This document shows positions 1 through 57,080 of a DNA stretch of 64,000 nucleotides, in pieces. The position numbers and the translations under genes are program-made. The notes beneath the pieces were generated by a model that saw nothing but the letters and a program-made list of their open reading frames with translations, had not been told where the DNA came from and did no database searches. Numbering within the stretch: position 1 is the first letter of the stretch; every line of letters starts with the position of its first letter. This stretch comes from Candidatus Latescibacterota bacterium (GTDB lineage Bacteria > Latescibacterota > UBA2968 > GCA-2709665): positions 2,304,001 through 2,368,000 of the forward strand of contig CBDDDZ010000005.1 in NCBI GenBank assembly GCA_965226795.1. Direction: 5' to 3'.

Positions 1-16
1 ACTGGCGCTTCCGGGG

Positions 17-781
17 CTACGTCGATGCGGCGTGGGCAATCAAATTCCTAAGTTCATCGAGGGTCAGCGCCCGCTTGGCCTTCCTGTGGATCATACGATG
101 GCAATTGCTGCAGACCACCGCCAGGTCTTGGTCCGGATCGACATCAAGTCCTTCATCTGGCGCAGTACTGAGCTCTTGGATGTGATGTACCTCCGCGAAA
201 TTACGCCCCCATTTGCCGTAAAACTCCTCAAAGACAAATCCACACACTTGACACTTGTTTCCATGAATTCGTAGCGCGGCAGTCCGAAGTCGAGGGCTAC
301 GTTCGCGCCTTCGTGACACTACAGCTTTGGTATTCCCCTCAATGCCCACGTTTACGATCTCGTAGTCCTCATCCGACTCGGCCTGAAGATCGCTCAGCAC
401 GGACGACGGAATGGGTGCGACGTCGACTTCCACAAGGTGGCGTACCGCTTCCCAGACCTCAGCGTCGGTCCGCGCTTCCCACTGTTTGAGCACCCGAGCA
501 TCTCGTTTTGGAAGAGGCTTCGGTTGTTCCCCTACCCGCCAGCCGCGACGTCCGGAGTCCACGTGACTGTCGAACTGATCGCGCGTGGCCTTTAGGCTAT
601 TGTGGAAGGATCGCAGACTCCGTCCAGTCCCAAGTGCATCGAAGAAGGACGCGTAGGCCGCTGCCCAAGAATCGGTTCCCAATTCCGCAGGAGGAAGAGG
701 GTTTTCCGCGTCTACCTTGCGACCGCAGCGAGAGAGGAATAAAGCTGCGAGAATGAAATCTTCACTTCGTTCGATCGACAT
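17..781 (-). CDS. HNH endonuclease (McrA-like C-terminal HNH domain), putative restriction/defence protein
   Basis: C-terminal CQVC...EVHH...CSNCHRMIH HNH zinc-finger motif. Confidence 0.8.
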   Translation of the reverse strand: MSIERSEDFILAALFLSRCGRKVDAENPLPPAELGTDSWAAAYASFFDALGTGRSLRSFHNSLKATRDQFDSHVDSGRRGWRVGEQPKPLPKRDARVLKQWEARTDAEVWEAVRHLVEVDVAPIPSSVLSDLQAESDEDYEIVNVGIEGNTKAVVSRRRERSPRLRTAALRIHGNKCQVCGFVFEEFYGKWGRNFAEVHHIQELSTAPDEGLDVDPDQDLAVVCSNCHRMIHRKAKRALTLDELRNLIAHAAST

Positions 782-823
782 CCGTGTTTGCCCGGTTTCG
801 TTAGGTTGATATTCAGTTTAAGA

Positions 824-870
824 TAACTTCTGCTCGTCCCCGAACTGCGGAGCCCAATTTGCTAGGGTTA
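824..870. repeat. degenerate att-like cassette site
   Basis: TAAC...CCCGAAC...GTTA, short and eroded. Confidence 0.4.
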
Positions 871-891
871 TACGGCGTGCATCTGAGAAAT

Positions 892-1893
892 CTAGAATGG
901 AAGGTCATTGGGACCTTTAAATTCCTTTCCCTTATTCACGTTTTCCTGATCGAAGATGAAGTCCATACCGACCGTGAGATTAAGGATATCATCTCGATCC
1001 AAGAAAATCACCTGGCGTCGGCTATCGATGTCAAGACGCTGCCCAAGCCAGGTTTTCGCTTGCTTCGTTATCTGTCCCGCAGAAATGATGAACACATGAT
1101 CGACCAAGACACGCTTGTTGGTCTCGGGATCCCAGATGGGATAATCAAGGACCATGTGAATCTGATTCAAGACTTCCGAGATATTTGTGTTCCCACTCTT
1201 TCCCGCAGAGTCCAATTTGCCTTTCTTAACTTGAGCAGCGAAGTACAAGTAATGAGTGGTTGGAAGCTGAAACTTCATCCACAAGTCGTTCCCGAACTCT
1301 AAGGCTTTATCAGAGTGCCCACTGATCGAAATTCGAGAAAAACCCAACTGTGCGAAAAGTGGCTGCAGAAACTCCTCGATGATCTGGTCCTCACTCATTT
1401 TGTCAAGGTGTCGACTGAGATCAGCACGCCGCTCGACTTCCTGGGGCGTCCACTTCCTCGCTGAATCTTGCGGTACGGAAGTAACTTGTGTTCCTGTGCT
1501 TCTTATGTAGCACTTCTTGTTCTCGTCATAGAATACACTCAAGCCGTCTCGAGCCAGTGTGAGATTGACATCGGCGAGTGCTCCATCTGGGTCTATCTCA
1601 TTCTGCTTGAGTTCTGCATAGTCTAGTAACTCCTGGATAATTCTTGTAATCTCAGGCGAAGGGAGTTGTGGCTGCGGTGCTGGTAATCCGTTTAGTTCAT
1701 TCAGTCGATCGACAACCCAATTCTTTCTAGTTGATCCATCGTGCGAATAATCAAATCCGCTGGCCTCGAAGAATTCGGTAAGGTACGTACTCGATCTGTA
1801 CGGGAAATTGTCCCACGCAAATCCTCCCATACCGCCAGATGCGCCACAGATCATTTCTGCAAGTGTCTGAATTGATCGCTTGGTGAGTTTCAA
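892..1893 (-). CDS. PD-(D/E)XK (Mrr-like) nuclease domain protein
   Basis: EFGNDLWMK...AAQVKKG resembles the Mrr-type D..QxK motif; 333 aa. Confidence 0.55.
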   Translation of the reverse strand: MKLTKRSIQTLAEMICGASGGMGGFAWDNFPYRSSTYLTEFFEASGFDYSHDGSTRKNWVVDRLNELNGLPAPQPQLPSPEITRIIQELLDYAELKQNEIDPDGALADVNLTLARDGLSVFYDENKKCYIRSTGTQVTSVPQDSARKWTPQEVERRADLSRHLDKMSEDQIIEEFLQPLFAQLGFSRISISGHSDKALEFGNDLWMKFQLPTTHYLYFAAQVKKGKLDSAGKSGNTNISEVLNQIHMVLDYPIWDPETNKRVLVDHVFIISAGQITKQAKTWLGQRLDIDSRRQVIFLDRDDILNLTVGMDFIFDQENVNKGKEFKGPNDLPF

Positions 1894-2722: not shown

Positions 2723-4215
2723 ATGGTTACGGACCAGCAAGTGAGGAGACTCATGGCGCTGATCCCGAGAGAACCGACGTTGTGCTTGGCAGCAGCAAAG
2801 GCCGGGATGGACGAGAAGACGGCACGAAAATACAGGAGGTCAGGTCAGTTACCCAGCGAGGTTCAAGCCCCCCATACGTGGCGGACCCGTCCAGACCCAT
2901 TCGCCGAGGTGTGGGGCGAGGTCGTGCTGCTTCTGGAGGTGAACCCGGGGCTTCAGGCCAAAACGGTGTTTGAGCACCTGCAGCGTCAGTATCCGGGTCG
3001 GTTTTCGGATGGCCAGTTGCGCACGTTACAGCGCCGCGTGAAGGTGTGGCGTGCCACAGCCGGTCCTCCTCGGGAGGTATTTTTCCCTCAGGTGCACTAT
3101 CCCTCAGACCGTTGCCAATCGGATTTTACGTGTCTCAACGACCTATGTGTGACCCTCGGTGGCTTGCCTTTCGATCATTTGGTCTACCACTTCGTGCTGA
3201 CGTATTCCAACTGGGAGACGGCCTCCATCTGCTTCTCCGAGAGCTTTGAGAGCCTCAGTGGAGGGCTGCAGCAGGCGCTTTGGGAGCTTGGCGGCGTGCC
3301 CCGTACCCACCAGACGGACCGGCTCAGTGCGGCGGTTCAGGACGTGGGGCGCCAGGAGATCTTCACCGCACGTTATCGGGCGCTGCTGTCCCACTACGGC
3401 CTGGAAGCCCGTGCGACCCAGGCTGCGCCAGTCCTCACGAGAATGGCGACGTGGAGCAGCGTCACTACCGCTTCAAGCAGGCCCTGGACCAGGCCCTGAT
3501 GTTGCGTGGCTCCCGGGCGTTTGACACCCGCAGATCCTATGAGCGCTTTGTACGCCGTCTGCTTTCCCAACTCAACGCCGGCCGGAAGGATCGCGTGCAG
3601 GAAGAGTTGGCCCTGTTGCGTCCCCTTCCCCAAAGGCGCCTGGAGACCTGCAAGCGCCTGCGGGTCAAGGTCGGGAAAAGCAGCACCATCCGCGTGGTCC
3701 ACAACGTCTACTCGGTCAACAGCCGCCTGATCGGGGAGACGGTGGATGTGCGTGTCCACACCGAACACATCGAGGTCTGGTATGGCTCCCGCCGTGTAGA
3801 GCGCCTGCCCCGGCTGCGTGGGGAAAGCCACCACCTGATCCAGTACCGGCACATCATCGACTGGCTGGTGCGTAAGCCCGGCGCTTTTGAAAACTATCGC
3901 TACCGTGCGGACCTGTTTCCCACCAGCCGCTTCCGGATGGCCTACGACAGCCTGCGAGCCCATCATACCCCACGGCGTGCCGACAGTGCATATCTGCGCA
4001 TCCTCCACCTTGCCGCCAAGGAGAGCCAAACCAAGGTGGAACAGGCCCTTTGTCATCTTCTGCGACAGGATAGCCTCAAAAGCGCCGAAGCCGTCGAAAC
4101 GCTCATCGGGCAGCAACAAGCCGACGTGCCCATCATCCCCGACGTCGCCATCCCTTCGGTAGATCTGAACCCCTACGATGGGCTCCTGCACCCACTGGAG
4201 GTGGCCGCCCGATGA
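2723..4215 (+). pseudogene. istA: IS21 transposase IstA, frameshifted near 3425
   Basis: ORFs 2723-3499 and 3280-4215 carry consecutive IstA parts (QSDFT, HQTD, HENGDVEQ). Confidence 0.9.
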
Positions 4216-4976
4216 GCACCGATCGTTTGCGATCCGACCTGGTGGGCTGTCTCAAGACGTTGCGCCTGCCCACCATACGGCAAGCCTTTGCACAGCAGGC
4301 CGAACTGGCAAGACGGGAAGGACAAAGCTATGAGCACTATCTCCTGGACCTGCTTCAGCAAGAATGCGAGGTGCGCCAACACAACCGCACCCTCCGCTTC
4401 CTACGCGAGTCGAAGCTGCCGTTGGAGAAAAGCCTGGAGATGTTTGACCGCACACGACTGCCCGCACCCCAAAACGCCCTCGTCGCAACCCTTGTGGACG
4501 GCGCCTTCCTCGACCGCACGGAAAATGTGCTCGCCTTCGGGCCCCCGGGCAGCGGGAAAACCCATCTGCTTTGTGCCATCGCGCAGACCCTCATCCATCA
4601 GGGACGCCGCATCCTGTTCACGCCCTGCAACCTGCTGGTACAGGAACTCCTTCTGGCCAAACGCGATCTGCGCTTGCCACGCCTCCTCAAACGCTTTGCC
4701 AAATACGATGCCCTCCTCCTCGACGATATCGGCTACGTCCAGCACAGCCGCGAAGAGATGGAAGTCCTCTTCGCCCTCCTGGCACATCGCTACGAGCGAG
4801 CAAGCGTCATGATCACTTCAAACCTGCCCTTCTCCGGATGGGAGGCCATCTTCAAGGACCCGATGACCACCGCCGCGGTGATCGACCGGCTCGTACATCA
4901 CGCCATCATCATCGATATGAACCTCAAAAGCTACCGACTCGAACACGCACAAAAATACCACAAACATCACCACTGA
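4212..4976 (+). CDS. istB: IS21 helper ATPase IstB
   Basis: GPPGSGKT Walker A, LLLDDIGY Walker B, DRLVHH. Confidence 0.95.
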   Translation: MSTDRLRSDLVGCLKTLRLPTIRQAFAQQAELARREGQSYEHYLLDLLQQECEVRQHNRTLRFLRESKLPLEKSLEMFDRTRLPAPQNALVATLVDGAFLDRTENVLAFGPPGSGKTHLLCAIAQTLIHQGRRILFTPCNLLVQELLLAKRDLRLPRLLKRFAKYDALLLDDIGYVQHSREEMEVLFALLAHRYERASVMITSNLPFSGWEAIFKDPMTTAAVIDRLVHHAIIIDMNLKSYRLEHAQKYHKHHH

Positions 4977-5504: not shown

Positions 5505-5568
5505 AATACGTCGAAGTTTCGCGAACCGCGAACGCATGGAAGCGCCGAAGCCAAGCACGAATCAGTTA
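5505..5568. repeat. degenerate att-like cassette site
   Basis: GCGAACCGCG...CGAAGCC...GTTAGGCG; GTTA overlaps the stop codon of the upstream gene. Confidence 0.5.
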
Positions 5569-6070: not shown

Positions 6071-7951
6071 CCTTAAACAAGCGTGATGGTGAGATTTTTC
6101 TGGTCCAAGAGACCGGAAAGGCCTACCGTTGTTGGAGATAGATGGATTGCGCTAGAAATCATCACTCCAACGCAGGAGACCTTTCCGGTGAAAAGAATAT
6201 CGGTTGATGACAGCCGCAGGAACAGTGCTCGTCGCAAACGCAAAGTGGCCGCCCGCCACGGTCGAGCGGGGCATTGGCAGGCGCAGCCCCGGCCCATGTT
6301 CAGTCCTGGCAAAGTGCACTACGAGGTGGGCGCCTACACCGACGCGATGAGTTACGGAGGCATCGGCGCCGTGCATCGCCTGGTCACCAAGCTGGGACTG
6401 CCCAAGCGCATCGACGCGTCGCTGTCCCTGTTGAAGGTGCATCTGCCCTATCATGAGTCGGACCACGTGCTCAACATCGCTTACAACGTGTTGTGCGGCG
6501 GCACGCGCCTGGAGGATATCGAGCGTTTGCGACATGACGGGGCCTACATGAATGCCCTGGGTGCTCAGTTGATTCCCGATCCGACCACGGCGGGTGACTT
6601 TTGCCGACGCTTCTCGGAACGGGACATCGTCGAACTGATGGCGTGCATCAACGCGGTGCGATCCTCCTTGTGGGCATCGCGTGGCCGCAAATTGCTTTGT
6701 GACATCACCTATATCGACGTGGACGGCACAAACGTGCCGACGTATGGAAAGCGCAAGAGGGGTATGGACATCTCTTACCAGGGCATCTGGGGCTACCATC
6801 CGCTGGTGATCTCACTGGCCAACACGAAGGAAGTGCTCTTCCTGGTCAACCGACCGGGGAATGTGCCCAGCCACACCGGTGCGGCACCCTGGATCGACGC
6901 GGCCTTGGCGCTGGTGCAGCCCCACGCCAAGCGCCTCTGTGTACGTGGCGACACCGACTTTTCCTTGACCCGACATTTTGATCGATGGGCCAAAAGCGTC
7001 GACTTCATCTTCGGGATGGACGCCAACGCGACGATGCGTTCCCGTGCTGAGGCCCTCGACGAGGCACAATGGCAGCCCCTGCAACGCAAACCCCGTTATC
7101 ACACCGTGACCGACCAGAAGCGGAAGCGCAATCAGCCCCACGAGAAACAGCGCATCGTCCGCAAACGGGCCTACGCCAACCTGGTCCTCAACCACGAACA
7201 CGTGGCCGAGTTCAACTACCAACCCACGCGCTGTAAACGTGTGTATCGCGTCGTGGTCCTGCGCAAGAACATCAGTAAAATGAAGGGCGACCTTGTCCTG
7301 TTCGACGAATGCCGTTATTTCTTCTATATCACGACACGCACGGACGTAAGCCCCGCCGAGATCGTCGCCTGTGCCAACCAACGCTGCGATCAGGAGAACG
7401 TCATCGAGCAACTCAAAAACGGCGTCAACGCCTTGCGCGTGCCCCTGTATGACCTGGTCAGCAACTGGGCCTACATGGTCATCGCCGCCCTGGCCTGGAA
7501 CCTCAAATCCTGGTTTGCCATGATGATGCACCGACACCTGGACCGACAGCAGTACGTCCGCATGGAATTCCGGCGCTTCATCCACAGCATCATCTTGATT
7601 CCCTGCCACGTCATCCAACGCGCGCACACCACCACGTTGCGCCTCATCGGCTATCAACCCACCCTCGATCGCCTCTTCAGCACCTGGCGTATCATTGAAC
7701 GCACCGGATTTGGATAACACCCATGCAGCACGACCGATGACACACACACGCCGCGCCATCCCCACACCCCTCAACGGACCGGTGTGTCCACCACGCGCCT
7801 GACCGACACTTCGGATACTCAATTCACGATAGCGACCACGACAAACACCGCCCCAAAGATCATCCAAAACGCCAATTCCATATAAATCGACACCAACGCC
7901 TCACCACAAACACAGATCGATGTGCCGCACACGAAACTCGCTTATTTTAGG
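6071..7951 (+). mobile_element. IS1380-family insertion sequence
   Basis: IRs CCTTAAACAAGCG / CGCTTATTTTAGG; direct repeat ACTAGT at 6065-6070 and 7952-7957. Confidence 0.92.
6188..7717 (+). CDS. IS1380 DDE transposase
   Basis: PDPTT, IDVDGT, GYHPL, VRGDTDF, QENVIEQLKNG motifs; GTG start after AGGAGA. Confidence 0.92.
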   Translation: MKRISVDDSRRNSARRKRKVAARHGRAGHWQAQPRPMFSPGKVHYEVGAYTDAMSYGGIGAVHRLVTKLGLPKRIDASLSLLKVHLPYHESDHVLNIAYNVLCGGTRLEDIERLRHDGAYMNALGAQLIPDPTTAGDFCRRFSERDIVELMACINAVRSSLWASRGRKLLCDITYIDVDGTNVPTYGKRKRGMDISYQGIWGYHPLVISLANTKEVLFLVNRPGNVPSHTGAAPWIDAALALVQPHAKRLCVRGDTDFSLTRHFDRWAKSVDFIFGMDANATMRSRAEALDEAQWQPLQRKPRYHTVTDQKRKRNQPHEKQRIVRKRAYANLVLNHEHVAEFNYQPTRCKRVYRVVVLRKNISKMKGDLVLFDECRYFFYITTRTDVSPAEIVACANQRCDQENVIEQLKNGVNALRVPLYDLVSNWAYMVIAALAWNLKSWFAMMMHRHLDRQQYVRMEFRRFIHSIILIPCHVIQRAHTTTLRLIGYQPTLDRLFSTWRIIERTGFG

Positions 7952-8542
7952 ACTAGTTCCTCCGCCCATCGAAATCGCTCCACTTCTGGGAACCCATGAA
8001 ACTTCGCAACCAACCTTCCATCGGCATCGGAGGCTAGTAGCTTAAGGTCAAGAAGAAGCTCGAATAAGACCCTCGTTGCGGTTGCTGCAGCCTGAAAATG
8101 AAGAGGGTCATTTATGCTGGTCAGAGACTTTATCCAACAGTACATACGATAATATAAACCGGTCACTGCCTGTTCTCGGTCATCTGGTTTCAGTCGTCCC
8201 GTGAGATTCGGCACCATTACTTTCTCGGCGAAATTACCAATGGCATCAGTGCCTTTGCAAAAGGCCTCAACTCGCTCCTGGACTGAAAATTCAGGTTCAT
8301 CGGCGTCGAACATTTCATCAAGAGTGGACATATCTTCCTGCCTTAGTCTTTGCGTTTCGTCAAATGCCGGCGGTGGCCAACGGGCTGTATAAGAAGAACC
8401 GGATTAATCGGTCTCAGCGTTGTATTCTAAAGTTGTTGATTAAGCACGAAAAGACCGTATCCGCCGCGAGAGCCAGGTACGATGCGGCCACCAGCGATCT
8501 TTTGTCAGCACCCGCAGCTTTGAAGGGAATAGTGGCGGGAGA

Positions 8543-9161
8543 TCAGGAGCGCATTCGTTCAAGGCAATCCTCATAAGCCTCAAAGAGCTCTCCTTCTTGT
8601 TCCTCGGGATCAACCTTCTTGAGGAACAACGCGCTGCCCGGCTTCTTGCCGGTAAACTCAAGGTGGCTCTTGATATGTGCCGGGTCCTCACCGATCCACT
8701 TGACCTCGCCATCCTGCAGATACACGAAATTCCCTCCGTGTTCCTCGATCATCGCCTGCATCCGATCGCGATTGAAGAGTCCCTGTTCGCAAGCCGTTTC
8801 CCTTACAGTGGCCATGATGCCAGGCGGATCTTCCTCGACAGAGTCGAATTCGTTCAATGGACCCTCGACCTCACTCTCGAAGTCGATTTCGTCGAGACTG
8901 ACCGTTCCAAATCCGCTCTGCGCCGCAACGAGGAGATGGTTTCGGTCGCGTCGGAATGGCGGCGTCGGCCAATCGGACGCGGGATCGTGCCCCATCAGGC
9001 TGGCGCCGACGGCATCGGTGGCGATGATCTGGTCGCCCGCGATGAGGGTGTTGCACACGCGGCCCTCGCCGCCCCGCTCACGACCCCATTGACCGGTCGT
9101 GGCGTCCACGATATCGAGACACGGGTTGGTTATGCACGCCAGATCGGGAGTACGTAGGACA
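8543..9161 (-). pseudogene. 5'-truncated duplicate of the DUF362 gene
   Basis: highly similar to 11147-11766. Confidence 0.85.
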
Positions 9162-11036: not shown

Positions 11037-11146
11037 TAGGATGTCCGATGCCTTCAATCGTTAATCAGGCCGAAGTCAGGTCGGACCTCACCGCCAAAGT
11101 GACCCTCCTGCTGGTGTGTGCTTGACGGGAAATGGTCGTTGGAGAC

Positions 11147-46667: not shown

Positions 46668-47200
46668 TCTGACGTGCGATACCCAAATTGTATCGCCCGC
46701 AACGTAACGCGGTTCGACACGTCTACCTGGTGACCACCCAATAGGTGTTGGTTTCCTTCGCCGATCCGACGTATGGCTCACAATCTTGGCTTCCGAAGAA
46801 CTGCCAACGATCGAATCCTCCCAGACGCAACAGCAATTGGAACTCTTCCGGGTAGATCCATCGTGCACGCATCGGCACTTTGCTGTCTCACAGTCATGCC
46901 TAAAGGTCCAGGTGTAGCTTTCCGTTTGTGACGAATGGTCGCAGATCTTCGAGTAGCTTACCTCGATCTCTTTCTCGGTCTCGGGATTGATAAACTCGCC
47001 AAATCTCTCTTCAGCAGGTGGGGATTCTTGATGGAGGAGCAAATCGTCTACGTAGGACGGAACGTAGAAATTCAATAGCAAACGTCCCCCGGGAACGAGA
47101 CAGTCGTAGACACTCTGAAGGGGTCTTTCGTTTTATGTCCTTTCTTGAGGAAATCCAGTGCATGTCCAAAAGACATGGATATTATTGTCTTTGCTTGTGC
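46665..47200 (-). pseudogene. degraded methyltransferase-like fragment
   Basis: PGGRLLLNFYVP followed by frameshifts. Confidence 0.4.
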
Positions 47201-47284
47201 CCCCTTTGATTTTCAAGTTCTACCCCTCAAGCTTTTCGTCCGTAACGGGTGGAATTGAACGCAAGAAACTTAATTGAAACAGTA

Positions 47285-47935
47285 CTAAGTTTGCATAAGC
47301 TCATGGATCAGCGGTGGGACCTGACGGATATCGGTCAGTTGCCGCAGGGCACCGGTGAAGTCCAGGCCGCGCGTCAGGCCCTGCGGTATGACGATGCAGC
47401 GCAGCCCGGCCGCCAGTGCGGCGCGCAGCCCCCGGTCCGAGTCTTCGATTACGACGCATTCGGCGGCGCTAAGGCCGTTTTGCCGCATAGCCGTGAGGTA
47501 GGGCTCGGGGTCGGGCTTGGAATGCCGGTAGTCTTCTTGCACGAGCGTGAAATCGATGCAGTCCAGCAGGCCGGTGGCGGCGTGGATGATCTCAAAGTGC
47601 TCCCGCCGCGAACTGGTGACGATGCCCATGCGCACCGTGCCGTGGAGTTGGCGCAGCACTTGGCGGGCGCCGTCGATGACGGGTACACCGGCGCGCAAGA
47701 GTTCGGTGTAGCGGGCGTTGCGCCAGATGCGGGCGGGCTCCAGCGCCTGTTCGTCTATGCGGTGTTCGGCGGCGAACCTGGTAAGGCCATCGCTGGCCTT
47801 GAGGAAGAGCTCGATAAAACGGGCTTCGCTCAGGCGGACGCCGAGGGGTTCCAGGGTTTCGCGGCAGGCCTGGAAGTACAGGCCTTCGGTGTCGACCAGG
47901 ACGCCGTCGTTGTCCCAAAGAATGGCTTTCAGCAT
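47285..47935 (-). CDS. HAD-IA phosphatase (high GC)
   Basis: WDNDGVLVDTE, KPDPEPY, IEDS. Confidence 0.9.
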   Translation of the reverse strand: MLKAILWDNDGVLVDTEGLYFQACRETLEPLGVRLSEARFIELFLKASDGLTRFAAEHRIDEQALEPARIWRNARYTELLRAGVPVIDGARQVLRQLHGTVRMGIVTSSRREHFEIIHAATGLLDCIDFTLVQEDYRHSKPDPEPYLTAMRQNGLSAAECVVIEDSDRGLRAALAAGLRCIVIPQGLTRGLDFTGALRQLTDIRQVPPLIHELMQT

Positions 47936-48050
47936 GGCGCTTTATTTCCTTTTCGCCGCTTCGCATAACGGCCTGTTAACCGCTGGCAGCCCCATCACGG
48001 CGAAGCCTATCACGGGCAGAGATAAAGCGCGCACCATCAGGCTTCTGATT

Positions 48051-48812
48051 CTACATGACCGGCCTGAATCTGGTTTGAAGAATCCTTTGGGCTGACAACT
48101 CACCAAAAGGCGCACCACAACACCTGACATCCTCCACAACCTTGTGGTAATCGTAACTCAATCGGTGATTTTCCACATGCCATTCCTGCCCATCCCACCA
48201 CACTCTGGCATATCCAGCTCGATGATCCCCGTCAAACGGAAACCCAACTGAATCAATGATGCTATACCGCTGACCGCACGGAACGCCACAGGCCGCATAG
48301 TGCAGGTGTCCCGCCACAATCAGATTGGCCTCCGCATCCCCCAGCAGTGTCCTGGCCTCCTCTTCTGGCGTAACGGTCAGAAGCCTGAACGGATCCTGAT
48401 CAGGTTGAAGAACCAAAAAACCGGCCACATCAGTAGGCGTTGCGTGCACAATGAGAAGATCATCCTCCGGAGACTGCCCTCCCGGTGGCGTTATCCTGTA
48501 CTCAAAGGGCAGACCCTTCAGATAGCTCAAGCCATCTGTTCCCAGCTTCTCTCTCACCCAGTCCAGTCTTTCCCCGGAATGCTGTTCATCAAAGACCAAC
48601 AGGTCTGCGTTCCCGTAAATCGTGGGAGCGCCCAGATTTCGTATCGCGTCAAGACTCTCGACCGGGCGGGGTCCGTTCAGCACCAGGTCGCCGGCGACCA
48701 CCAGACGATCATAGGGTTGGCTTTGCAGATCCTCAAGAACAGCGTTGAGTGCAGCGACGTTGCCGTGAATATCTGCAATTACCGCAACTGAGTATGACGG
48801 GGAATCATTCAT
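48051..48812 (-). CDS. metallophosphoesterase
   Basis: ADIHGN, GD, GNAD, VHA, GHLH. Confidence 0.9.
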   Translation of the reverse strand: MNDSPSYSVAVIADIHGNVAALNAVLEDLQSQPYDRLVVAGDLVLNGPRPVESLDAIRNLGAPTIYGNADLLVFDEQHSGERLDWVREKLGTDGLSYLKGLPFEYRITPPGGQSPEDDLLIVHATPTDVAGFLVLQPDQDPFRLLTVTPEEEARTLLGDAEANLIVAGHLHYAACGVPCGQRYSIIDSVGFPFDGDHRAGYARVWWDGQEWHVENHRLSYDYHKVVEDVRCCGAPFGELSAQRILQTRFRPVM

Positions 48813-48926
48813 TTCACATCTCCAAAATTTCGAGGTGGCGGGCAGTGGTTCTTGCGCGCCTTCAGTTTTTGCCGCTTATCGTTCGCGCCCGCGGGAAACC
48901 CTCCCGCAACGAGTCAGAGATCTTGC

Positions 48927-50240
48927 TCATATTCGGCCCCCTTCGGGTACCTCGCGCCCGCCGTCCCAGACGCCTGGCTTGTCGGTCCCCGTCGGCCAGT
49001 ACCCGTCGGCGTCTTCATCCCATTGGTTTCCGCACAGCGACGAGATGATGGTCCATTCCGCCGCCCCGAAATCCGGCTCGGGATGGTATAGGAAGCGCTT
49101 CAACCCCGCCTCCTGCGAAGCAGTCAGGATGCCGTAGAGATCGCGCGCCTGCATCGGGTCGCCGCCGTGGGGGCGGCGCCCCGTGGACACCCAGGCTATC
49201 ACCTTGTCGGGATCACCTATGGCCGCCAGGGCCCGCCGAGTCTCGTTGTAGACCACCTTGGAGAAGAATTCGTCGGGGAAACCCATCTCCATGTCCATAA
49301 GCGAGTTGATGCCAGGCAGCTCGATGCCCAACAGCGCCTTCACTACGGCGAAACACTCCGCCTCGCTCAGGGACGGATTCCACTTTCGCAATCGTCTTAC
49401 CCAGCGGGATATGGTTCCGTACATGCCGTCCATGCCGCGGTGCCAAAAATAGTGTTTCGGAAAGATATAGTCGAAATACTCCGCCATCTGACAGTAATTC
49501 TGTCCGGTGAGCGATGACCACGTCACGGCCCGCGGGATACCGCCCAACTCCACCTTGCGATCGACGGCGTCGACCTGTTGCCGCATGTACTGCCAGTCGA
49601 AGCGAGAGCGCTCCTGACGCTTGCGCAGCCAGTAGAGCACGTCCTCGTTGACGTCGAACAGGAGCATTGCCCCCAGCATCCCCCCGTCGGCGTGGTACCG
49701 CACCATTTCCGGTGTCAGATTGTGCAAACGCTCCCGAAAGTGGGTGATGCCGCGTTGTATTCGATCAATCTCGGCGCCGACCTGGGCGAAGCGGCCCTCC
49801 TCACCCGGACGGATCTCCAGGAGTTCGCCCCCGTGGTGGAAGGCAAGCTCGTAGTGGTTTTCGCCCGGACCGTCGACAATGACGCCGTGCACCTGCGGAA
49901 AGGCGTTCATTAGGTCCTGCACGTGGGCGGTCGGGCCGCCTCCGGCGAAAATCAGTAGTCGCCAGCCCCGCTCCGCGGCGTTGTCCAGCATTGCGTGCAG
50001 CTTCTTCTCTTTTGAGAGGTCGCGCGGACGCTGCTCCGGGACTTCCGCCCCCAGGGCCTCGTACACCTTCGGGTCGGGAGCCCACGCCGGAATGGTGGTG
50101 CCATCCTCCTGGAGGAATGCCATGCGGCCGACGGCCAGACCGCGCACGCCACCATCCGCCCAGGCGTCGAACCGCTCCTCGAACCCGTCGAGCCAGTGTT
50201 CGAACGGGCTGTCACTGCAGGTGAATACCCAGAGTTTCAT
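48927..50240 (-). CDS. conserved hypothetical 437-aa protein (paralog of 36202-37578)
   Basis: shared motifs; GGAGG RBS. Confidence 0.8.
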   Translation of the reverse strand: MKLWVFTCSDSPFEHWLDGFEERFDAWADGGVRGLAVGRMAFLQEDGTTIPAWAPDPKVYEALGAEVPEQRPRDLSKEKKLHAMLDNAAERGWRLLIFAGGGPTAHVQDLMNAFPQVHGVIVDGPGENHYELAFHHGGELLEIRPGEEGRFAQVGAEIDRIQRGITHFRERLHNLTPEMVRYHADGGMLGAMLLFDVNEDVLYWLRKRQERSRFDWQYMRQQVDAVDRKVELGGIPRAVTWSSLTGQNYCQMAEYFDYIFPKHYFWHRGMDGMYGTISRWVRRLRKWNPSLSEAECFAVVKALLGIELPGINSLMDMEMGFPDEFFSKVVYNETRRALAAIGDPDKVIAWVSTGRRPHGGDPMQARDLYGILTASQEAGLKRFLYHPEPDFGAAEWTIISSLCGNQWDEDADGYWPTGTDKPGVWDGGREVPEGGRI

Positions 50241-50276
50241 TTTTCCCTCCTTTGGGGTAAAAGGGGCGATTTCCGT

Positions 50277-50374
50277 TAACGGCCTCGCGATACCCGACGT
50301 TGCCGGAGCGTAGCGGAGGTAATGTGCCCGGAGGGCCGAATGACCGAAGGGAGTGTAGCGGGCATCGCGTGTTA
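50277..50374. repeat. att-like site
   Basis: TAACGG..CGCGATACCCG...CGGGCATCGCGTGTTA. Confidence 0.88.
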
Positions 50375-50512
50375 AGCGTCCGTGTTGTTTTTTGTCATCA
50401 GGAATGGAATAAAGGAGCGGACATCACTTTCTCTGTTTTTCCGGTTTTTCTGCTTTTCAACAAGAAGATTACTGTTGTACCGATTCCTCGCCAGATAGCA
50501 ACTTACGGAGGT

Positions 50513-50947
50513 CTATGTTGATATATTCGATACGCAGTCGAAACCAACGGATCGACACTGAATCTGAATTGTACCTTCCAACAGAATCTCCCTGTGCTCG
50601 TCCTTCCTCTCGTTCTGCCAGTATCGTCGCGCCCGCTCGAACATCGATTGAAGGGTTTCGAATTCTTCGAAGTAACTTATCAGGTTCATATCAGCAGCGA
50701 ACGCGCGCGAGCATTCAAGAATCTCGATATCATACAGTTCGCACGCTTCCCTATGGGAGTCGAATCGTCTGGCAGCACTCGCTTCTGGCCAGAGAAACAG
50801 GCAATCAAACCGACTTGGCCTATGGGGAAATTCCCGTAGACGAACAGTCTCCCACGCGAGTTCCATCATGACACGACCTGTCTCGGCGGCATTTGGAACC
50901 GTTACCGCGAGAGAGTCCGCTTGGACTTCGATCAGGATCTGACGCAT
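50513..50947 (-). CDS. hypothetical (DUF2441-like) protein, 5' end uncertain
   Basis: E.VR..FPHRPSRF.CLF, ARRYW, EILLEG. Confidence 0.45.
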   Translation of the reverse strand: MRQILIEVQADSLAVTVPNAAETGRVMMELAWETVRLREFPHRPSRFDCLFLWPEASAARRFDSHREACELYDIEILECSRAFAADMNLISYFEEFETLQSMFERARRYWQNERKDEHREILLEGTIQIQCRSVGFDCVSNIST

Positions 50948-51094
50948 TAAATGGGTCTGGAAGTCTCCAGGTCTTACAACGGCTCCAGAGCGAAGGCCAG
51001 ACTTCGCCGACCAAAGCAGGTGAGTTCCTGGACCAATATGTTGTAGAGCCCGTGCTCGCTGGCTCGGCGTCCATCCAGAACCCCGTCGAAATTC

Positions 51095-51340
51095 TCACTC
51101 ACAGAACTGAAATGCGTAGAGCTTCGCGTCGCGCATGATGAAGCGTATCCTGACCGGTTGGCCGGCGAGTTGGCGAAGGTCGCCAGCGGGCCACGAAACG
51201 GGCAGCCTGACGGAATTGCCGACGTGCCATATTGAATCTGCGCCACTATACCCCTCAAGCGGACTTCCGTCTTCGGCGAGTAGTTCAACGCGCACGCTGC
51301 CTCCGGCGGCTGTGTCGACATTGAGTTCGAGGCGCGATCC
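51095..51340 (-). pseudogene. C-terminal fragment of a glycosidase-like protein
   Basis: LELNVD..GGSVRVEL...IRFIMRDAKLYAFQF, similar to the 3' end of the 42461 ORF. Confidence 0.55.
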
Positions 51341-52442
51341 GTAATTCGCCGGTGTTGGCGAATCGGCTGTGGTACTGGCACAGCACTCGGTCCGGTCGAT
51401 CCGCCCGTTTGCCGGCTAGTTCGGGCATCAGCGACACGCCGCCCAGGTCCTCCGGCGTATCGAGTTCGGCCATGTCCATAAACGTCGGATAAAGGTCTAC
51501 CAGGGACACCAGCGCATCGACCTCGTGCCCCGCGCGTACATCCGGGCCGGCGACGATCAGCGGCACGCGAGCGGACGCCTCGTACATCGCGTTTTTCAGA
51601 TGTTGGCGATGTTCCATATTCATCTCGCCGTGATCGCTGGCGAACAGTACATAGGTGCTGTCCATCAGCCCGAGCCGATCGACCGTGGCCATCACCTCAC
51701 CTACCATTTCGTCGACTTCCGTCACCATCGCGAAATACGTGCGCCGCACCGCGCGAATTTCGTCTTCGGTGAACGGATCGGCGCAACCCTTGGTCGCGCA
51801 CATGTAGTCCACCACGGGATGCAGATGGGCCTCATACGGTGGAATGGTCACTGCGTCGGGGTCAATTCTGTCGAGATAGTATTGCGAGGAGACGAAAGCG
51901 GGGTGCGGACAATCCAAACTGCAGTGCAGGATGAAGGGCCGGTCGCCCGCCTGGCGCGTCTCCAGGTAGGCGATGGTGTCCTCGACCTTAGCCCAGTCGC
52001 GCTGGTGTACGCGACGCTCATCCGTTGCGACGTGCTTCAGGCCCGGAAGCGGTCCGGTGCTGCGCGATAGCCGGATGTTGGCCGCGCGGGTCCAGGACGA
52101 TATTCGATTGTGCAGTGAATGGCGGCCTGACAGGTAATCCGTCTTGCCGTAGGCCTGGTGGATATAGCCCGCGTCCTCCAGGTCGGAGACATAGGTTCGC
52201 TCGTCCGGCTCGAGCCCCTTATAATTGTTCCATCCTTCGATGACGTGGGTGTGTTTGCCGCTCCAGCGACTGGAGCGCGACGGGCAACACTGGGGAGAGC
52301 TGCAATAGGTGTTGCGGAACAGAGCGCCGCGCTCCGCCAGATGGTCCAGGTGCGGCGTCTTCACCGCCGGATGGCCGACGCACCCCATCGCGCGCCCGTC
52401 CATGCTGTCGCATTCGATGAACAGGATGTTCCGCTTGCTCAT
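51341..52442 (-). pseudogene. sulfatase (choline-sulfatase-like), 3'-truncated
   Basis: CCPSRSS, YGKTD, SDHGE, RVPLI. Confidence 0.85.
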
Positions 52443-53034
52443 GGCGTCGTCGGTGCGTCCTCGCTCGGATCCCAGATGGTCGCCGCGATGTGCTGCTGGG
52501 GATTCTCGGCGCTATTGAAGTAGTAGATCGTCACGAGCTTACCGTCCGGTCGTACGACCATGCGCGGATAACCCATGTCTCCGTACTGCGCCCCGTCACG
52601 GATCGCGATCTCTTCACCCCACTGGGTCCCGTCAGGGGACGTGAATCGGGCGCGTATCCCGCTCTGTTTGCCTGCCCGGTAGCCGTAGCCGCACACGAGG
52701 CGTCCGTCGGCGAGGCGGACCAAAGCCGGCGGATTGCCGTTGGAGGGGAGGTCGGGCGGGTGGGTGGCGGCGACCTTGCCCAAGAAGCGCCAGGAGACGC
52801 CGCCATATTATAGCTGGCCGCTTCTTCCCGCTGCCAGCTCTCGCCCCCGTCGCGGCTGCGCGAAAGGGCTGGGAAGGATGGTTGCTCACCACTGATTCGG
52901 TGGCCCTGTTCCTTGAACTCGTAGTCGCCGTTCGTATAGCCAACGACGATCTCGTCCGCCCAGCTCCATACCCCGTCGTTGGCCGGCCAGCCCAGGAATC
53001 GGCCTTCCTCTCCGGCTACGATAATATGCTTCAT
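52439..53034 (-). pseudogene. sialidase/BNR-repeat protein with internal deletion or frameshift
   Basis: SRDGGESW, DMGYP; two frames. Confidence 0.65.
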
Positions 53035-53088
53035 GAGACGACCTTCATGATGGCGTACAATGTTCGGATCTTCTTTCCTCATTTCATC

Positions 53089-53173
53089 TAACGTTTTCAC
53101 GGTTTACGAACCTGCGTAGCAGGTTGCCAAAGGCCAAGCCGCCGTAGGCGGCGAAGCGTAAACCGCTGTGTTA
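53089..53173. repeat. att-like site
   Basis: TAACGTTTTCACGGTTTACGAAC...CGTAAACCGCTGTGTTA. Confidence 0.93.
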
Positions 53174-53273
53174 GATGAAGTGGGATCTAAGCCAATGCCA
53201 AACACGCATAGATTACCGCCAGGGCTCAGCCGAGCCGTCCTCGGCGTCAGCTGCAGCCCTTGATTCGCCGGTG

Positions 53274-53741
53274 TTACTCAGGCCGCAAGTTCACTCTGTA
53301 CCGACACGTCGGCCCGAATTCTCCTGGCTCCCGTTCGGTTTCGATGGTGTCGACATACTCTGCGCCGATCAACTCACATGTTCTCCTGGATGCGAGATTA
53401 TCGGATCGGGAAGTGATTAACACCGAGTTGATCCCATGGCGCAGGGCAAGGGGAAACAGCAGGCGACAGCTGCGGGCAGCGTATCTGTTCCCGCGATATT
53501 CGTCGTCCACGTCGTGGCTCAGATTTCCTCCATACTGCTCGAGCCTTTCCGTGCACCGCGTTCTGAGGCGGATACTGCCGATCTTCACGTCGCTGCCAAT
53601 AAGCCGCATCTCGAAACGGTACTCCGGCACCCGTCCCGTGTCAGGATCAGATGGAAGCGTCTCGGTGAGGACGAGCTCAAGGTCTCCGTCGACCAAGTGT
53701 CCTGGATCGTGGAATTCACACTCGGAATTCTTTCGGGTCAT
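53274..53741 (-). CDS. GNAT acetyltransferase cassette
   Basis: YGGN, YRGNRYA, DNLASRRTCE. Confidence 0.8.
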   Translation of the reverse strand: MTRKNSECEFHDPGHLVDGDLELVLTETLPSDPDTGRVPEYRFEMRLIGSDVKIGSIRLRTRCTERLEQYGGNLSHDVDDEYRGNRYAARSCRLLFPLALRHGINSVLITSRSDNLASRRTCELIGAEYVDTIETEREPGEFGPTCRYRVNLRPE

Positions 53742-53848
53742 CCGGTATTCTCTGCGGCCAACTTGTGATTGAACGGCGAATATGCAGTATATCTCCAGAA
53801 TATCGGGAGATACACTGCAAGACCCGACTTTACTTTTCCCATTTCATC

Positions 53849-53986
53849 TAACGGTCAAGCACCCACGAACCTGCCCAGCTGGCACGGCGCTTGCCCCTCA
53901 CGATTCTCATCAAGCAAGCGCCCGTGACAGCGCCAGGCAGGTTCCGCGAAGGGGCGCAAGCCCCGAAGCCGGGGGTGCCGTTGTTA
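53849..53986. repeat. att-like site (long)
   Basis: TAACGG..GCACCCACGAACCTGCC...GGCAGGTTC...GGGTGCCGTTGTTA. Confidence 0.88.
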
Positions 53987-54079
53987 GCCGATGCGGCGCG
54001 CCCCGGGTCCAGGCGCAGCCCTCAAAATGGGTCAGTCTAGCGCACACCATACACGGCCCCGCTTGGTTTTTCCTGACTC

Positions 54080-54883
54080 TCAATTGAGAAAGCTGATAAT
54101 CTCCACAGCTGATACGGAGACTACTCCGTGGTCATTGGTGACGTCACAAAATAGCATCTCCTGCTCGTTCAAAGAGGCCCTTTGGATAATTCGCCTGGCG
54201 GTGTCACAAACGACGGAACCGCCAAGAACACGGCCTTCAGGTATTGGGGTGACCTGGGAAACATAGTTGGACTGGATGACCGGCACATTGAACAATCCTG
54301 TAATCGCTTTCGCCCCCTCTCCGCACCCGTCTCGGGTCATCTCGCCATCCTGGTTCCTTTTGCTCGTCGCGACACTTGGCCACAGAATCACGTCGCTGTC
54401 CTCTAATCCTCGGCCTACCACGTGATCCAGAAAACTCGATTCGGCGCAGAAGACAGAGCCAAAAAGAATACCGTGGATGTCTACAGGAGACCGCTCCTCC
54501 GACTCTACAAAACCCCATAGTTTCTTCCAAGCCTCGATCAAGAATGTCCTGGAGCCAGCAAGTACCGGTCCTTCCCCCGGCTGCAGTAGCAACAGCGCAT
54601 TGAGGAATCCTCTCTTCGAGAGAAAGGGCGAGCCAACCAGTGTGTAAACTTCAATTTCTTGGGTAACCATGCTCAGCTCTTCCAAGCTCGTCTCGATTTG
54701 GCCGTACCAATCAGGCTCTTTGAAGAATTCGTGTAAGTGTTGATCATACCCGGTCAGCATCATCTCTGGGAAAACTATCAGCTCAGCCTCATGGGATGCC
54801 GCCCTTTGCATCCACGCTTCAACAGTCGCGGTATTTTCTTCAACTGTTGCCGACATTGCGGGTTGCATTGAACAGACTCTCAT
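54080..54883 (-). CDS. carbon-nitrogen hydrolase (nitrilase family) cassette
   Basis: IVFPEMMLTGY, FCAE. Confidence 0.8.
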   Translation of the reverse strand: MRVCSMQPAMSATVEENTATVEAWMQRAASHEAELIVFPEMMLTGYDQHLHEFFKEPDWYGQIETSLEELSMVTQEIEVYTLVGSPFLSKRGFLNALLLLQPGEGPVLAGSRTFLIEAWKKLWGFVESEERSPVDIHGILFGSVFCAESSFLDHVVGRGLEDSDVILWPSVATSKRNQDGEMTRDGCGEGAKAITGLFNVPVIQSNYVSQVTPIPEGRVLGGSVVCDTARRIIQRASLNEQEMLFCDVTNDHGVVSVSAVEIISFLN

Positions 54884-54982
54884 TTGATTTCTGGAAAAGT
54901 AGGGCTGAGGGGTGTCATGGTCTTGCTTTTGTGCTCCGTAACCTGGGTTGGGAGGGGTTCCGTATTCTGCGCCGCTTTCGCC

Positions 54983-55065
54983 TAACGTTCTCGCGGGCTG
55001 CGAACCTGGCGAAGCCAGGTTGCTGCGGAGGCGCGTATGCGCCGAAGCCGCAGCCCGTCGTGTTA
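54983..55065. repeat. att-like site
   Basis: TAACGTT..CGGGCTGCGAACCTGGCGAAGCCAGGTTGC...CGCAGCCCGTCGTGTTA. Confidence 0.93.
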
Positions 55066-55226
55066 CACGCTTGCGGCGCGCCCCTTCCACGGCGACGCCC
55101 GCAACGGGCTGTATTAAGTGCACACCATAAACGATGTTTTCTGGTTTTTCGTCCTGTTTCTCAGGTCAATCGGAGGCCCATCAATAGCACCAAGAAAACA
55201 CATATCTCCCGAGTTAACTTCGCCCA

Positions 55227-55721
55227 TTAAAGGGGATTCGCCTTTATGAGTTGGAAGAGGTCGCCTTTCCTGGGGCGTTCGGATGTCAAAATCTCCATCA
55301 ATCTTGCCAGGACGTCAGCCCGGTCGAAACGCTTGAATTCTGGGTACAGCCCGATACGCCAATGGAGATAACCTTCAAGCTGTTTCGGATCTGTGAAAAT
55401 CTGTTTGGCCGCCAGAAACTCTGCTTGTAAGGCACGCCGATGTGCATAGGCATGTGAGCGTGAGGCCAACTTGTGTTGAATTTCCACATGCTCGTGTAGA
55501 GCAAACAAACGCGCATACTGCTCGTTCAATTCGATTAGGTCTTCTGGGATGTAAATCGTCCCTGCTTCGTCGTAGAAAGCCAGATCGGGTGTATCGGCTT
55601 CACACCGAAACACCGCATAAGAGATGGGCGTGTCAGCTACGACTGCCTGCTCGGTGCGGATGACTGACTGCTCAATAGCATCGAACAACTCAGTGGCTTC
55701 CGGGTGTGGCAATCGGAGCAT
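55227..55721 (-). CDS. hypothetical protein with HExxE/H metalloprotease-like motif; first cassette
   Basis: ALHEHVE...AH. Confidence 0.55.
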   Translation of the reverse strand: MLRLPHPEATELFDAIEQSVIRTEQAVVADTPISYAVFRCEADTPDLAFYDEAGTIYIPEDLIELNEQYARLFALHEHVEIQHKLASRSHAYAHRRALQAEFLAAKQIFTDPKQLEGYLHWRIGLYPEFKRFDRADVLARLMEILTSERPRKGDLFQLIKANPL

Positions 55722-55816
55722 AGGTATGGCTCTCGGGTGGGGTGTGTTCAGGGTTTTTGCTTTTTGTGCACGATCTGCAGGGTGGGGTGGTTGGGCCATC
55801 CTGCGCCGCTTGCGTG

Positions 55817-55947
55817 TAACTATGGTATTACCGAACCGTTACGGTAATGCGGGCCAGATCGGAGAATTCCCGAACGTTCGGGAACATTCCACGCTGAAGC
55901 TTGTAGCCCAAACATGTTCAGGAATGCTTCCTATGGTGGCATCGTCT
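55817..55947 (-). other. putative primary insertion site (attI-like) downstream of the recombinase
   Basis: TAAC core, ATTACCG/CGGTAAT dyad, perfect palindrome TTCCCGAACGTTCGGGAA at 55867-55884. Confidence 0.7.
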
Positions 55948-57080
55948 CTAACCAAAAACTGCCCCCCTTTCTTCCATCAATGCATCCGGCGGGCTCTGGA
56001 TTTTCGCGAGATCCCGATTCGTCACCCGAGTATAGATCTGTGTGGTTTTTGGGCTTGCATGCCCCAGCAACACCTGGATATATCGCAGGTCGGTCCCGCG
56101 TTCAAGCAGGTGTGTCGCAAAGGAATGCCGTAGCGTATGTATCGATATCCGCTTGTTAATATTGGCTTTCTTGCAAGCCCGGTCAAATGCTTTCTGAACT
56201 GATCGCTCGGTCAAATGCCGTCCCGGCCTTGCGCCCGGGAACAACCATGTTTCGGGTGGATATTGGCGCCTGTAGTCTTGAACCGCCTTCTGTGCGACCG
56301 CGGAGAGCATTGTGTAGCGATCCTTCCGGTGCTTGCCCTGACGAACATGAACCAGCTTTCGGTCCAGGTCGATATCTTCGACCTTTAGCCGGACCGCTTC
56401 ACCCAATCGGAGGCCTCCGGAATAGGTCAACAGGATGATCGCCCGATGCTTCAGGTTTTCTACCGCATCCAGTAACCGAAGCACTTCGGGCCGGCTCAAC
56501 ACAGTGGGCAATTTGTGCTCTTTTTTCGGACGGGGCAGGTTTTCAAGCGGATGCTGATCTTTTAACACACGGAGAAACAGGAATTTCAGTGCGCTCACGC
56601 ACTGATTGACGTAACTGTGCGAGGCTCCCGTTTCAAGGAGGTGATACACGTAATATCGGACCTCCATCTCCCCAAAAGATCGAGGTGCCTTGCCGCAATA
56701 ATTGGCAAATCGTCTGACGTGACCAAGGTAAGCTTTTCGCGCTTTTCGCGCGATACCCACCTGAGCCTCAACTCTTTTGCCATTTCTTCCAGAAACCCCT
56801 CAGGCTGATGCAGCGGTACTTCCAACCGGGTAATAGACACTGGATAAATAGATCCTGTCTCCGTGGGATCAACCCTGAACAATGTCGTCAGCTTTTCCAG
56901 CACCGCGCTTGTTCGGGGAATGCTCCAGAACCTGACAGCTGCCTCCCATCTTCGACCTGGTATCGTCTTGATTTTCTTGACACCATCCGTCGAATAAGAA
57001 AACCGTACGAAAAGACGGCCGTTCTTACCAGGAAACACGTGAGCTTTGGGTTTGTGCGATTTTGGATGTGGATACTCCAT
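55948..57080 (-). pseudogene. tyrosine recombinase (SAM-like plus catalytic domain, extra N-terminal domain), frameshift near 56755
   Basis: [35 protein letters not shown]; the upstream ORF ends ELRLR at the junction. Confidence 0.9.

Follow-up and report, generated by a model that had tools for sequence, protein, structure and literature searches.

A candidate integron-like cassette platform with a HARP-Xer recombinase instead of IntI in a Candidatus Latescibacterota chromosome

The cassette array and its recombination sites

The stretch of DNA analyzed here (the window, 64,000 nucleotides of a Candidatus Latescibacterota bacterium) comprises positions 2304001-2368000 of contig C5 of a 5.41-Mb genome in 5 contigs, which we designate G000; negative positions lie to the left of the window. 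It contains a long array of gene cassettes separated by related recombination sites and, at the end of this array, a gene for a tyrosine recombinase in which a HARP-like domain is combined with the PF13495 and PF00589 modules (HARP-Xer recombinase). A preliminary description, made from the sequence alone, had interpreted this arrangement as a gene-cassette capture platform that is analogous to classical integrons and yet distinct from them, and this interpretation is supported by the sequence comparisons presented below. The features on which the argument is built are the following:

1-55820, minus: cassette array, delimited by profile searches
Site cores 1-8, minus: 5512-5568, 10939-11036, 14232-14372, 15080-15217 (left core doubtful), 16226-16312, 16815-16899, 17659-17732, 18504-18582
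Site cores 9-16, minus: 19245-19367, 19873-19944, 20580-20668, 21467-21552, 24062-24158, 25717-25796, 26581-26655, 26954-27032
Site cores 17-24, minus: 29194-29256, 29762-29851, 30376-30450, 32044-32137, 33256-33332, 34295-34375, 35013-35157, 39141-39216
Site cores 25-31, minus: 40034-40113, 40531-40680, 46578-46667, 50278-50374, 53090-53173, 53850-53986, 54984-55065
53086-53176, minus: a typical site (TAAC, 4 nt, 9-bp stem, two-hairpin branched top, stem, 7 nt, GTTA)
32044-33258, minus: PhyH-family cassette with a 99.6-100% identical copy near the array head of the related genome G013 and in a second block of the related genome G008
37902-37945, minus: second attI-like site, G at 37913, behind the recombinase stub
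38044-38307, minus: 3' stub of a second recombinase copy, 85% identical, with an internal TAG
55809-55850, minus: attI-like site GTTCG-N11-G|TTA, G at 55820; copies are alike as far as GTTA and diverge beyond it
55948-57080, minus: HARP-Xer tyrosine recombinase gene (HARP-like domain, PF13495, PF00589), co-oriented with the cassettes, with a frameshift near 56760
56880-57050, minus: N-terminal HARP-like domain, beta-beta-alpha-beta-beta-alpha in the model of the intact relative P0001

The 31 related sites were recovered by iterated profile searches between 5512 and 55065, with their top strand always on the minus strand, and 26 of them have kept both AAC and GTT, which matches the roughly 30 palindromic sites counted originally. 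An artefact or chance occurrence can be rejected: On the minus strand of positions 1-57080 the motif pair TAACA..A[AC]CGTTA is present 15 times and on the plus strand 0 times, as compared with a mean of 0.14 (maximum 2) in 100 first-order Markov resamples and 0.08 occurrences per 57 kb elsewhere in G000, and a hidden Markov model trained only on 25 sites from five other genomes yields 23 matches in G000, of which 16 are on the minus strand of the window, 6 in the 104 kb leftward of it and 1 elsewhere. The sites run past the left window edge to about -23.5 kb, with an extra cluster of six at -92 to -98 kb, which bears out the suspected continuation of the array to the left of position 1. As they are strand-specific and restricted to a 155-kb region of G000, a genome-wide repeat was rejected as well. 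Within the window, 22 of the 32 site-to-site units measure at most 1.3 kb; the rest consist of several genes or contain insertion sequences (IS) or decayed sites. The overlap of a gene stop with the left core, which had been called frequent, is real but is confined to a minority of 5 of the 31 sites (5566, 26653, 27030, 40678 and 46666); at 13468, which had been listed in place of the last of these, TAAC does overlap a stop but no intact site follows. Such an overlap of stop codon and core is a known trait of attC sites, too.

The core triplets AAC/GTT and the polarity of the sites are likewise those of attC, and what had been noted as TAAC...GTTA on the plus strand is in fact the bottom strand of a core with attC polarity. 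Because core, polarity and stop overlap are held in common, the site is to be regarded as a variant of attC and not as an unrelated design, and the proposal of a separate site grammar does not extend to these three properties. It does hold for the interior of the site and for the arm outside it: The best arm register is +3 in 41 and +4 in 14 of 81 sites, the top usually consists of two hairpins, and the bottom strand is the better folder in 58 of 81 cases. A conserved box is separated from GTT by 14 nt in the right arm (52 of 67 arms) and from AAC by 11 nt in the left arm (49 of 75), and the outer arm extends over 11-13 bp with a fixed mismatch at +8. The canonical attC rule (5/6-nt spacer, L box with an extrahelical base) identifies none of the window sites, whereas the same rule does detect the sites adjoining IntI in four other genomes (G017, G067, G083 and G134). 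Conversely, a model of the new site type has no match in canonical arrays upstream or downstream of IntI; two new-type matches in G017 are located on the opposite strand, beyond an IS91-type gene. Cassette starts agree with either arm of dif (sequence as given in the relevant part of PMC2731167) at 5.4 of 8 positions versus a background of 3.5. Mean column identity across the sites amounts to 55%, and RNAalifold on a MAFFT alignment returned only a 4-bp AACC/GGTT hairpin because the branches misalign, for which reason our site model R1 is a sequence-only model. The three long sites 53850-53986, 35013-35157 and 19245-19367 carry an extra hairpin inserted in the top, and near-identical top-hairpin inserts are also present in G008, G013, G015, G017 and G020.

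Cassette mobility and the attI-like entry site

If a unit was once circular and closed at G|TT, the bases preceding AAC should pair with the start of the same unit. In a set of 74 unique cassettes, taken from G000 and from arrays of related genomes, the stretch ahead of AAC pairs with its own cassette start at 8.2 of 12 bases versus 5.0 for the start of the next cassette; the own start is the better partner in 60 cases and the next one in 7, with 7 ties (p about 1e-11), and own-end pairing reaches to about +13. The cassette starts have G at +5 in 96% and A at +8 in 93%, and position +8 is paired in 4%; on the bottom strand, T.G would be formed there in most cases. In a small control of canonical attC arrays (5 cassettes, 12 starts), pairing is 0.6 or less at +2 to +12 and G+5 is present in 2 of 12 starts.

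A fixed cassette order was rejected in a unit comparison with the same-genus genomes G008 and G013, a comparison among relatives that the preliminary description had suggested. Out of 37 units, 19 are shared between G000 and G008 and 20 between G000 and G013, comprising nearly all of the mid-array at 97-99.8% identity; the two leading units of G000 are found in neither relative, and G008 and G013 have different heads of their own. Array turnover therefore appears to be faster at the head. Moreover, cassettes that G003 and G013 have in common within different neighbourhoods break at +2 or +3 after GTT, and for three downstream cassettes the upstream sites differ up to GTT; of the informative junctions, the majority lie at GTTA. 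A search for an excision joint in the contigs of four public runs over 38600-58200 returned no precise one, although contigs cannot show absence. The own-end pairing and the unit comparisons argue for units that are mobile cassettes bounded by G|TT.

The least probable explanation that we consider holds that the repeats are dispersed palindromes, either similar to repetitive extragenic palindromes or terminators or derived from a small mobile element, in a genomic island whose genes moved by homologous recombination or with IS elements. It would account for strong branched hairpins after gene ends and for an array with several IS elements and with duplications that are not ended by sites, namely a Kelch-repeat gene (30654-31962 with 41131-42439, 97-98% identity) and a DUF362 gene fragment (8458-9161 with 11122-12403, 91%). 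However, the strand specificity and the confinement to 155 kb contradict it, and own-end complementarity as well as GTTA junctions would be unexpected from homologous recombination between sites of such low mean identity.

The putative entry site of the cassettes lies between array and recombinase gene: The junction of the attI-like site is positioned 128 nt behind the recombinase stop, at the 3' end of the gene. Its copies in G000 (the two in the window), G008, G013 and G015 are identical up to GTTA and are mostly followed by different cassettes; the first cassette behind the stub copies is common to G000, G008 and G013. Related junctions are present in G016, G017 and G038; three of them have GTTCG or CTTCG with 10 nt. 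The site is joined to the 3' end of a HARP-type gene in G000, G008, G013, G015, G017 and G038, and 12 of the 14 genomes of the same genus contain matches to this attI-like DNA, in many cases directly before a cluster of sites. G000 also has copies that lack a recombinase, at C5:2214737-2214873 (about -89 kb), heading the six-site cluster mentioned above, and at C5:2285123-2285193 (about -19 kb). Decayed copies were seen on C2 at 36276-36462 and 38033-38133. The recombinase gene reads toward the array, and this co-orientation together with the attI-like site at the gene's 3' end agrees with the geometry of its own that had been claimed for the platform, although co-orientation of integrase and cassettes alone is already described for "inverted" IntI integrons in PMC4889954.

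The HARP-Xer recombinase and its distribution

As originally described, the array ends at a tyrosine recombinase gene, albeit a frameshifted one; a contig from one RNA run spans 56270-56803 gap-free, which is a weak hint that the frame break near 56760 is not an assembly error. Intact relatives have 376 aa and include P0001, which is 94% identical to the window protein over a 270-aa part, as well as P0150 and P0151. The PF00589 match has E=1e-43, and the catalytic RKHRHY set (R224, K249, H314, R317, H340 and Y349) is invariant in 40 relatives. In profile comparisons, the 270-aa part reaches 206 bits in two stretches against TIGR02249 (cut-off 265) and 210 bits against NF040815 (cut-off 220). 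Most of 49 HARP-labelled proteins have a distance of 64-65 from K..KxR to HxLRH, as compared with 106 in seven out of seven IntI measured, and query residues 153-181 span residues 170-240 of VchIntI4 (2a3v), that is, 28 versus 70 residues. Because of both differences, the IntI insertion of about 42 aa (I2) is, by these sequence measures, absent from the HARP-Xer recombinase; in the alignment, the part of IntI represented by the intI_Cterm profile of IntegronFinder is likewise missing. According to the pertinent sections of Cury et al. (PMC4889954), a domain of about 35 residues is the defining mark of IntI, recombinases without it adjoined fewer than three attC sites, and those near attC-like sites were set aside; helix alpha-I2 makes contacts near the extrahelical G20, as stated in the pertinent part of Larouche and Roy (PMC3053210).

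For the N-terminal domain, profile A3 has SMARCAL1 (4o66) as its best PDB match with E=0.0033, and Pfam HARP is found in 13 of 27 members, the window member falling below the cut-off with E=0.0052. In the P0001 model the predicted local distance difference test (pLDDT) is 81-93 over residues 11-70; folding of the domain from a single sequence was poor (pLDDT 63.6). Whole-model fold searches, which took in residues 90-376 only, gave 2a3v as top PDB match, and the Atlas fold search returned only Bacteroidota clusters (0.89-0.90). In a tree of 61 rows, calculated by a quick search without the mis-picked L056 and about half of the proteins measured for motif distance, 13 IntI form one branch (Shimodaira-Hasegawa-like approximate likelihood ratio support 100), and P0001 is placed outside of it in a group of 14 (96) that adjoins IS91-linked recombinases (83) and Bacteroidota HARP proteins (82). 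This position and the missing insertion are in line with the recombinase clade of its own that had been postulated. At E<=1e-40, TIGR02249 has no match in G000 or the 14 same-genus genomes; its cut-off is passed in 14 of 140 genomes of the phylum. Phage records contain 10 matches to the recombinase query, none covering more than 80%, and in listings of the open-licence PMC and bioRxiv literature no account of a cassette recombinase with HARP and without I2 turned up.

The association of sites and recombinase, a point also raised in the preliminary description, was scanned in 79 GTDB loci, 47 of which extend at least 3 kb downstream. Co-oriented downstream sites are present at 5 of 9 HARP-labelled, 0 of 15 IS91-linked, 1 of 19 other and 0 of 4 unlabelled loci, the single positive "other" locus (L125) being sister to a HARP protein on the tree; the opposite strand of the 47 loci is free of sites. 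The properties of the sites recur at 11 Bacteroidota loci, which were chosen because sites were visible there: Of 61 sites, 51 have the +3 register, own-end pairing is 9.0 versus 4.4 with the own end winning in 29 and the other in 3 of 33 cassettes, and all 33 cassettes have an A at +8 that is unpaired in each of them. Position +1 tracks the cassette's own start (0.91 versus 0.67), from which a crossover inside or just before GTT would follow. As judged from these sequences, the site type accompanies HARP-Xer genes in two phyla. One Bacteroidales locus, L202 (G172:C1:526001-545500), has more than 20 sites in 17 kb, with near-identical sites of 67 nt, and in 36 of 81 Bacteroidales genomes the recombinase profile is matched either over its full length or in part. 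Rfam searches of seven Bacteroidota loci returned only tRNA, tmRNA and one DUF805 match, which is located after a site and not on it. At L261 of the environmental Bacteroidales genome G366, a SUKH immunity-like gene downstream of a HARP-Xer gene is flanked by the site type (sites identified by eye).

Some peculiarities of these loci may be mentioned. L202 contains a unit of roughly 375 bp that is repeated at least six times between other cassettes. In G366, an open reading frame (ORF) of 294 aa with two HARP-like stretches (L261:3988-4872) is situated upstream of the HARP-Xer gene, and the genes between recombinase and first site look toxin-antitoxin-like by eye. Two long Bacteroidales recombinases of 596 and 638 aa (L197:559-2349 and L196:415-2331) seemingly comprise two SAM-like repeats.

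Interpretation, related systems and further features of the locus

G|TT-bounded units, an attI-like site behind the recombinase stop, head turnover, a conserved site build and an I2-less HARP recombinase form the sequence-level basis on which we assign a probability of about 80% to the following reading: The locus would be a sedentary chromosomal integron-like cassette platform that employs a HARP-Xer recombinase instead of IntI and that is a recently disabled relic in G000. Several observations weigh against it. G000 is without an intact recombinase copy, as it has only the window gene, the stub at 38044-38307 and one distant recombinase. P0001 is matched at E<=1e-30 in only 3 of 14 same-genus genomes, and partially in each case, while 13 of the 14 have sites, from which, together with the attI-like DNA in 12 of them, we conclude that arrays keep their entry site after the gene has decayed. 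The HARP scores are modest, the HARP proteins need 3 changes on the tree with IS91-linked proteins lying among them, so that HARP may have had a single origin or several, and 4 of 9 HARP loci have no site under the strict rule. At the level of the cassettes, A+8 also occurs in 7 of 12 starts of the (small) canonical control, the duplicated cassette 32044-33258 diverges from its copy at +14 and not at +2, and when 43 pairs of units whose 5' neighbours differ were matched automatically, both members began within 3 nt of G|TT in only 8 pairs, with IS-bearing units and missed sites forming part of this set. Finally, G017, a genome of the same family, also carries IntI, and G020 combines 75 sites with six HARP-less IS91-linked recombinases, one stub and no other recombinase.

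The case of G020 leads to an alternative that we consider unlikely, in which the working enzyme would also or mainly be a HARP-less paralogue from an IS91-type module that travels as a cassette and acts in trans. In G020, five of the six IS91-linked copies lie in or beside site clusters, and the modules L049 (G020:C1, about 2.070-2.073 Mb) and L050 (about 4.651-4.654 Mb), each consisting of a 283-aa tyrosine recombinase and a 394-aa transposase, are complete cassettes: Each begins with a GTT that follows an attI-like sequence and terminates in a full site, the left flank of which is complementary to the beginning of the same module, +8 mismatch included, and the copies diverge right after GTTA. 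Since such modules could act in trans, the HARP domain may not be required. On the tree, moreover, the IS91-linked PF13495 recombinases are sister to the group that contains the window's recombinase (support 83); they are its nearest catalytic-domain relatives and are likewise devoid of I2. On the other hand, they lack HARP and adjoin an IS91 transposase, no arrays or downstream sites are found at any of the 15 tested loci from other phyla, G000 has no IS91-linked recombinase gene, and the attI-like site is physically joined to the HARP-type gene in the six genomes named above. In G017, the start motif of L049/L050 follows an attI-like site (L042), and an IS91-type recombinase is located directly behind the canonical intI.

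We regard as very unlikely that the window holds a cluster of attC sites lacking integron-integrases (CALIN), that is, a divergent attC array made by a lost or trans-acting IntI, with the Xer-like gene as a bystander. The attC-type core triplets and polarity would fit, as would the IntI found in 14 of 140 genomes of the phylum and in one of the same family (G017). Yet the window is devoid of canonical-grammar sites, the new-type model misses canonical IntI arrays, neither G000 nor the same-genus genomes have IntI at the threshold used, the site type follows the HARP-Xer gene in two phyla, and the array has an attI-like site and a recombinase of its own.

For a HARP-Xer cassette platform, we propose a mechanism that starts with folding of the bottom strand of the cassette site: AAC would pair with GTT, three extra bases would bulge out beside the core, and a stem of 8-9 bp would carry the branched top. 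With the 3-nt bulge out, the CG/GTTCG box would be spaced from the core by 11 nt, the same distance that the double-stranded attI-like site has, and the folded site would thereby mimic attI. In the excised circle, the two cassette ends would pair to an outer arm of 11-13 bp that binds the cleaving monomer; this arm, TTA-NNN-G-M-M-A-T, would be loosely dif-arm-like with a T.G-type mismatch at +8. By analogy with integrons, one strand exchange at G|TT would insert the circle at attI and replication would resolve the junction, and the HARP-like domain may replace the structure sensing of I2 by binding the fork or the branched top. On a more general reading, for and against which we see equal odds, HARP-Xer capture via folded single-stranded sites (3-nt bulge, branched top, Xer-like 11-bp arm, T.G mismatch), with HARP replacing the I2 helix, would constitute a second, independent integron family. 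Members would be found in this lineage, in Bacteroidota and probably in Bacillota, the rAID-1 arrays discussed below would belong to it, and it would comprise IS91-like modules as self-mobilising cassettes and be missed by IntI/attC searches. If the enzyme works, cassette capture would have evolved with a second structural solution, phyla counted as integron-poor would contain large collections of cassettes overlooked by present tools, and there would be a testable mechanism for the unexplained way in which rAID-1 arrays acquire genes. The +3 bulge, the +8 mismatch and the 11-nt box spacing common to attI allow for direct predictions on site mutants, and DNA assembly could profit from a new structure-guided recombinase.

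Among known systems, sedentary integrons (VchIntIA, 2a3v), above all those of the "inverted integrase" group (PMC4889954), are similar in many respects: They have co-oriented, promoter-less-looking single-gene cassettes, the same core triplets and polarity, a crossover within GTTA, an entry site beside the recombinase, head-of-array turnover, a bottom-strand folding bias, the PF13495+PF00589 architecture and a typical cargo (GNAT, NUDIX, HAD, methyltransferases, HIT, toxin-antitoxin). IntI integrons differ in that the present recombinase lacks I2, has a HARP-like N-terminal domain and is placed outside the IntI clade, while the sites differ from attC by the +3/+4 arm register instead of a 5/6 spacer with an extrahelical base, by the branched top, by a longer outer complementarity and by the conserved G+5 and +8 mismatch. 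Archaeal integrons retain the IntI domain, as described in 10.1101/2022.02.06.479319, and the attC models in PMC8352920 cover 11 taxa with no Bacteroidota among them. XerC/XerD-dif, pdif modules and archaeal XerA have the recombinase fold in common with our protein (best VIA Z 21.0 to 4a8e), and cassette starts resemble dif arms above background; dif, however, is a fixed 28-bp double-stranded site for two proteins, whereas the sites here are long, variable, folding and of one orientation.

The closest published case without IntI is rAID-1 of Bacteroidales, which we compare by description only. In the descriptions we consulted (Ross et al., 10.1101/471110; PMC12247911; PMC12694586), which contain no site structure, attI or mechanism, an XerD-like recombinase is located 5' of co-directional short immunity genes with intergenic repeats "reminiscent of integrons", and the definition given comprises more than 44% identity to BF9343_RS08045, genes of at most 41% GC and orphan immunity cargo. 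Like rAID-1 as characterized there, the window has a recombinase 5' of at least two co-directional genes with repeated intergenic motifs, and the present site type also occurs in environmental Bacteroidales, once around the SUKH gene of L261; in contrast to it, our array has 55.5% GC and metabolic as well as unknown cargo and lies outside Bacteroidales. The DUF1874 motif (Weinberg et al. 2017, PMC5737381) is, like the sites described here, multistem and present in consecutive intergenic regions; in the part of that article relating to it, it is suggested to be an unusual attC, with no integrase seen.

The GC content of the array is to be compared with 58.3% for G000 overall. The named sequences most similar to a SCO gene in the flank come from a Gemmatimonadota MAG (84%) and a Latescibacteria MAG (57%), and the host probably belongs close to these lineages. 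Its cargo by Pfam includes GNAT, NUDIX, HAD, methyltransferases, HIT, flavodoxin-like, HicB, PIN, HNH and toxin-antitoxin families, many unknowns and insertion sequences; the array ORFs scanned with Pfam contain no immunity families, and PADLOC gave 5 weak-to-moderate matches among 29 proteins. An Rfam scan of the window found no family at its gathering score. As a candidate for the cassette promoter Pc, one sigma-70-like match is located at 56186 (minus), with 1.1 expected by chance. The array also contains the following elements:

2723-4976, plus: IS21-like element (Mu-transpos_C_2, IstB)
6083-7717, plus: DDE_Tnp_1_4 transposase
21888-23365, minus: IS3-like element within a cassette (HTH_Tnp_1, rve)

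Paralogous ORFs of 440-460 aa without a Pfam match, about 70% identical, are found at 36202-37578 and 48927-50240, their ends not lying at sites, and an 88-aa cassette ORF (26653-26919) has a partial match to PF10706 (aminoglycoside-2''-adenylyltransferase-like, E=1.5e-6). Contigs of three public runs skip 1406 bases at 43930-45337 and add 1532 bases at 51342/51343; these are insertion polymorphisms away from cassette sites. The platform is flanked by a family B DNA polymerase gene at 58409-60535.

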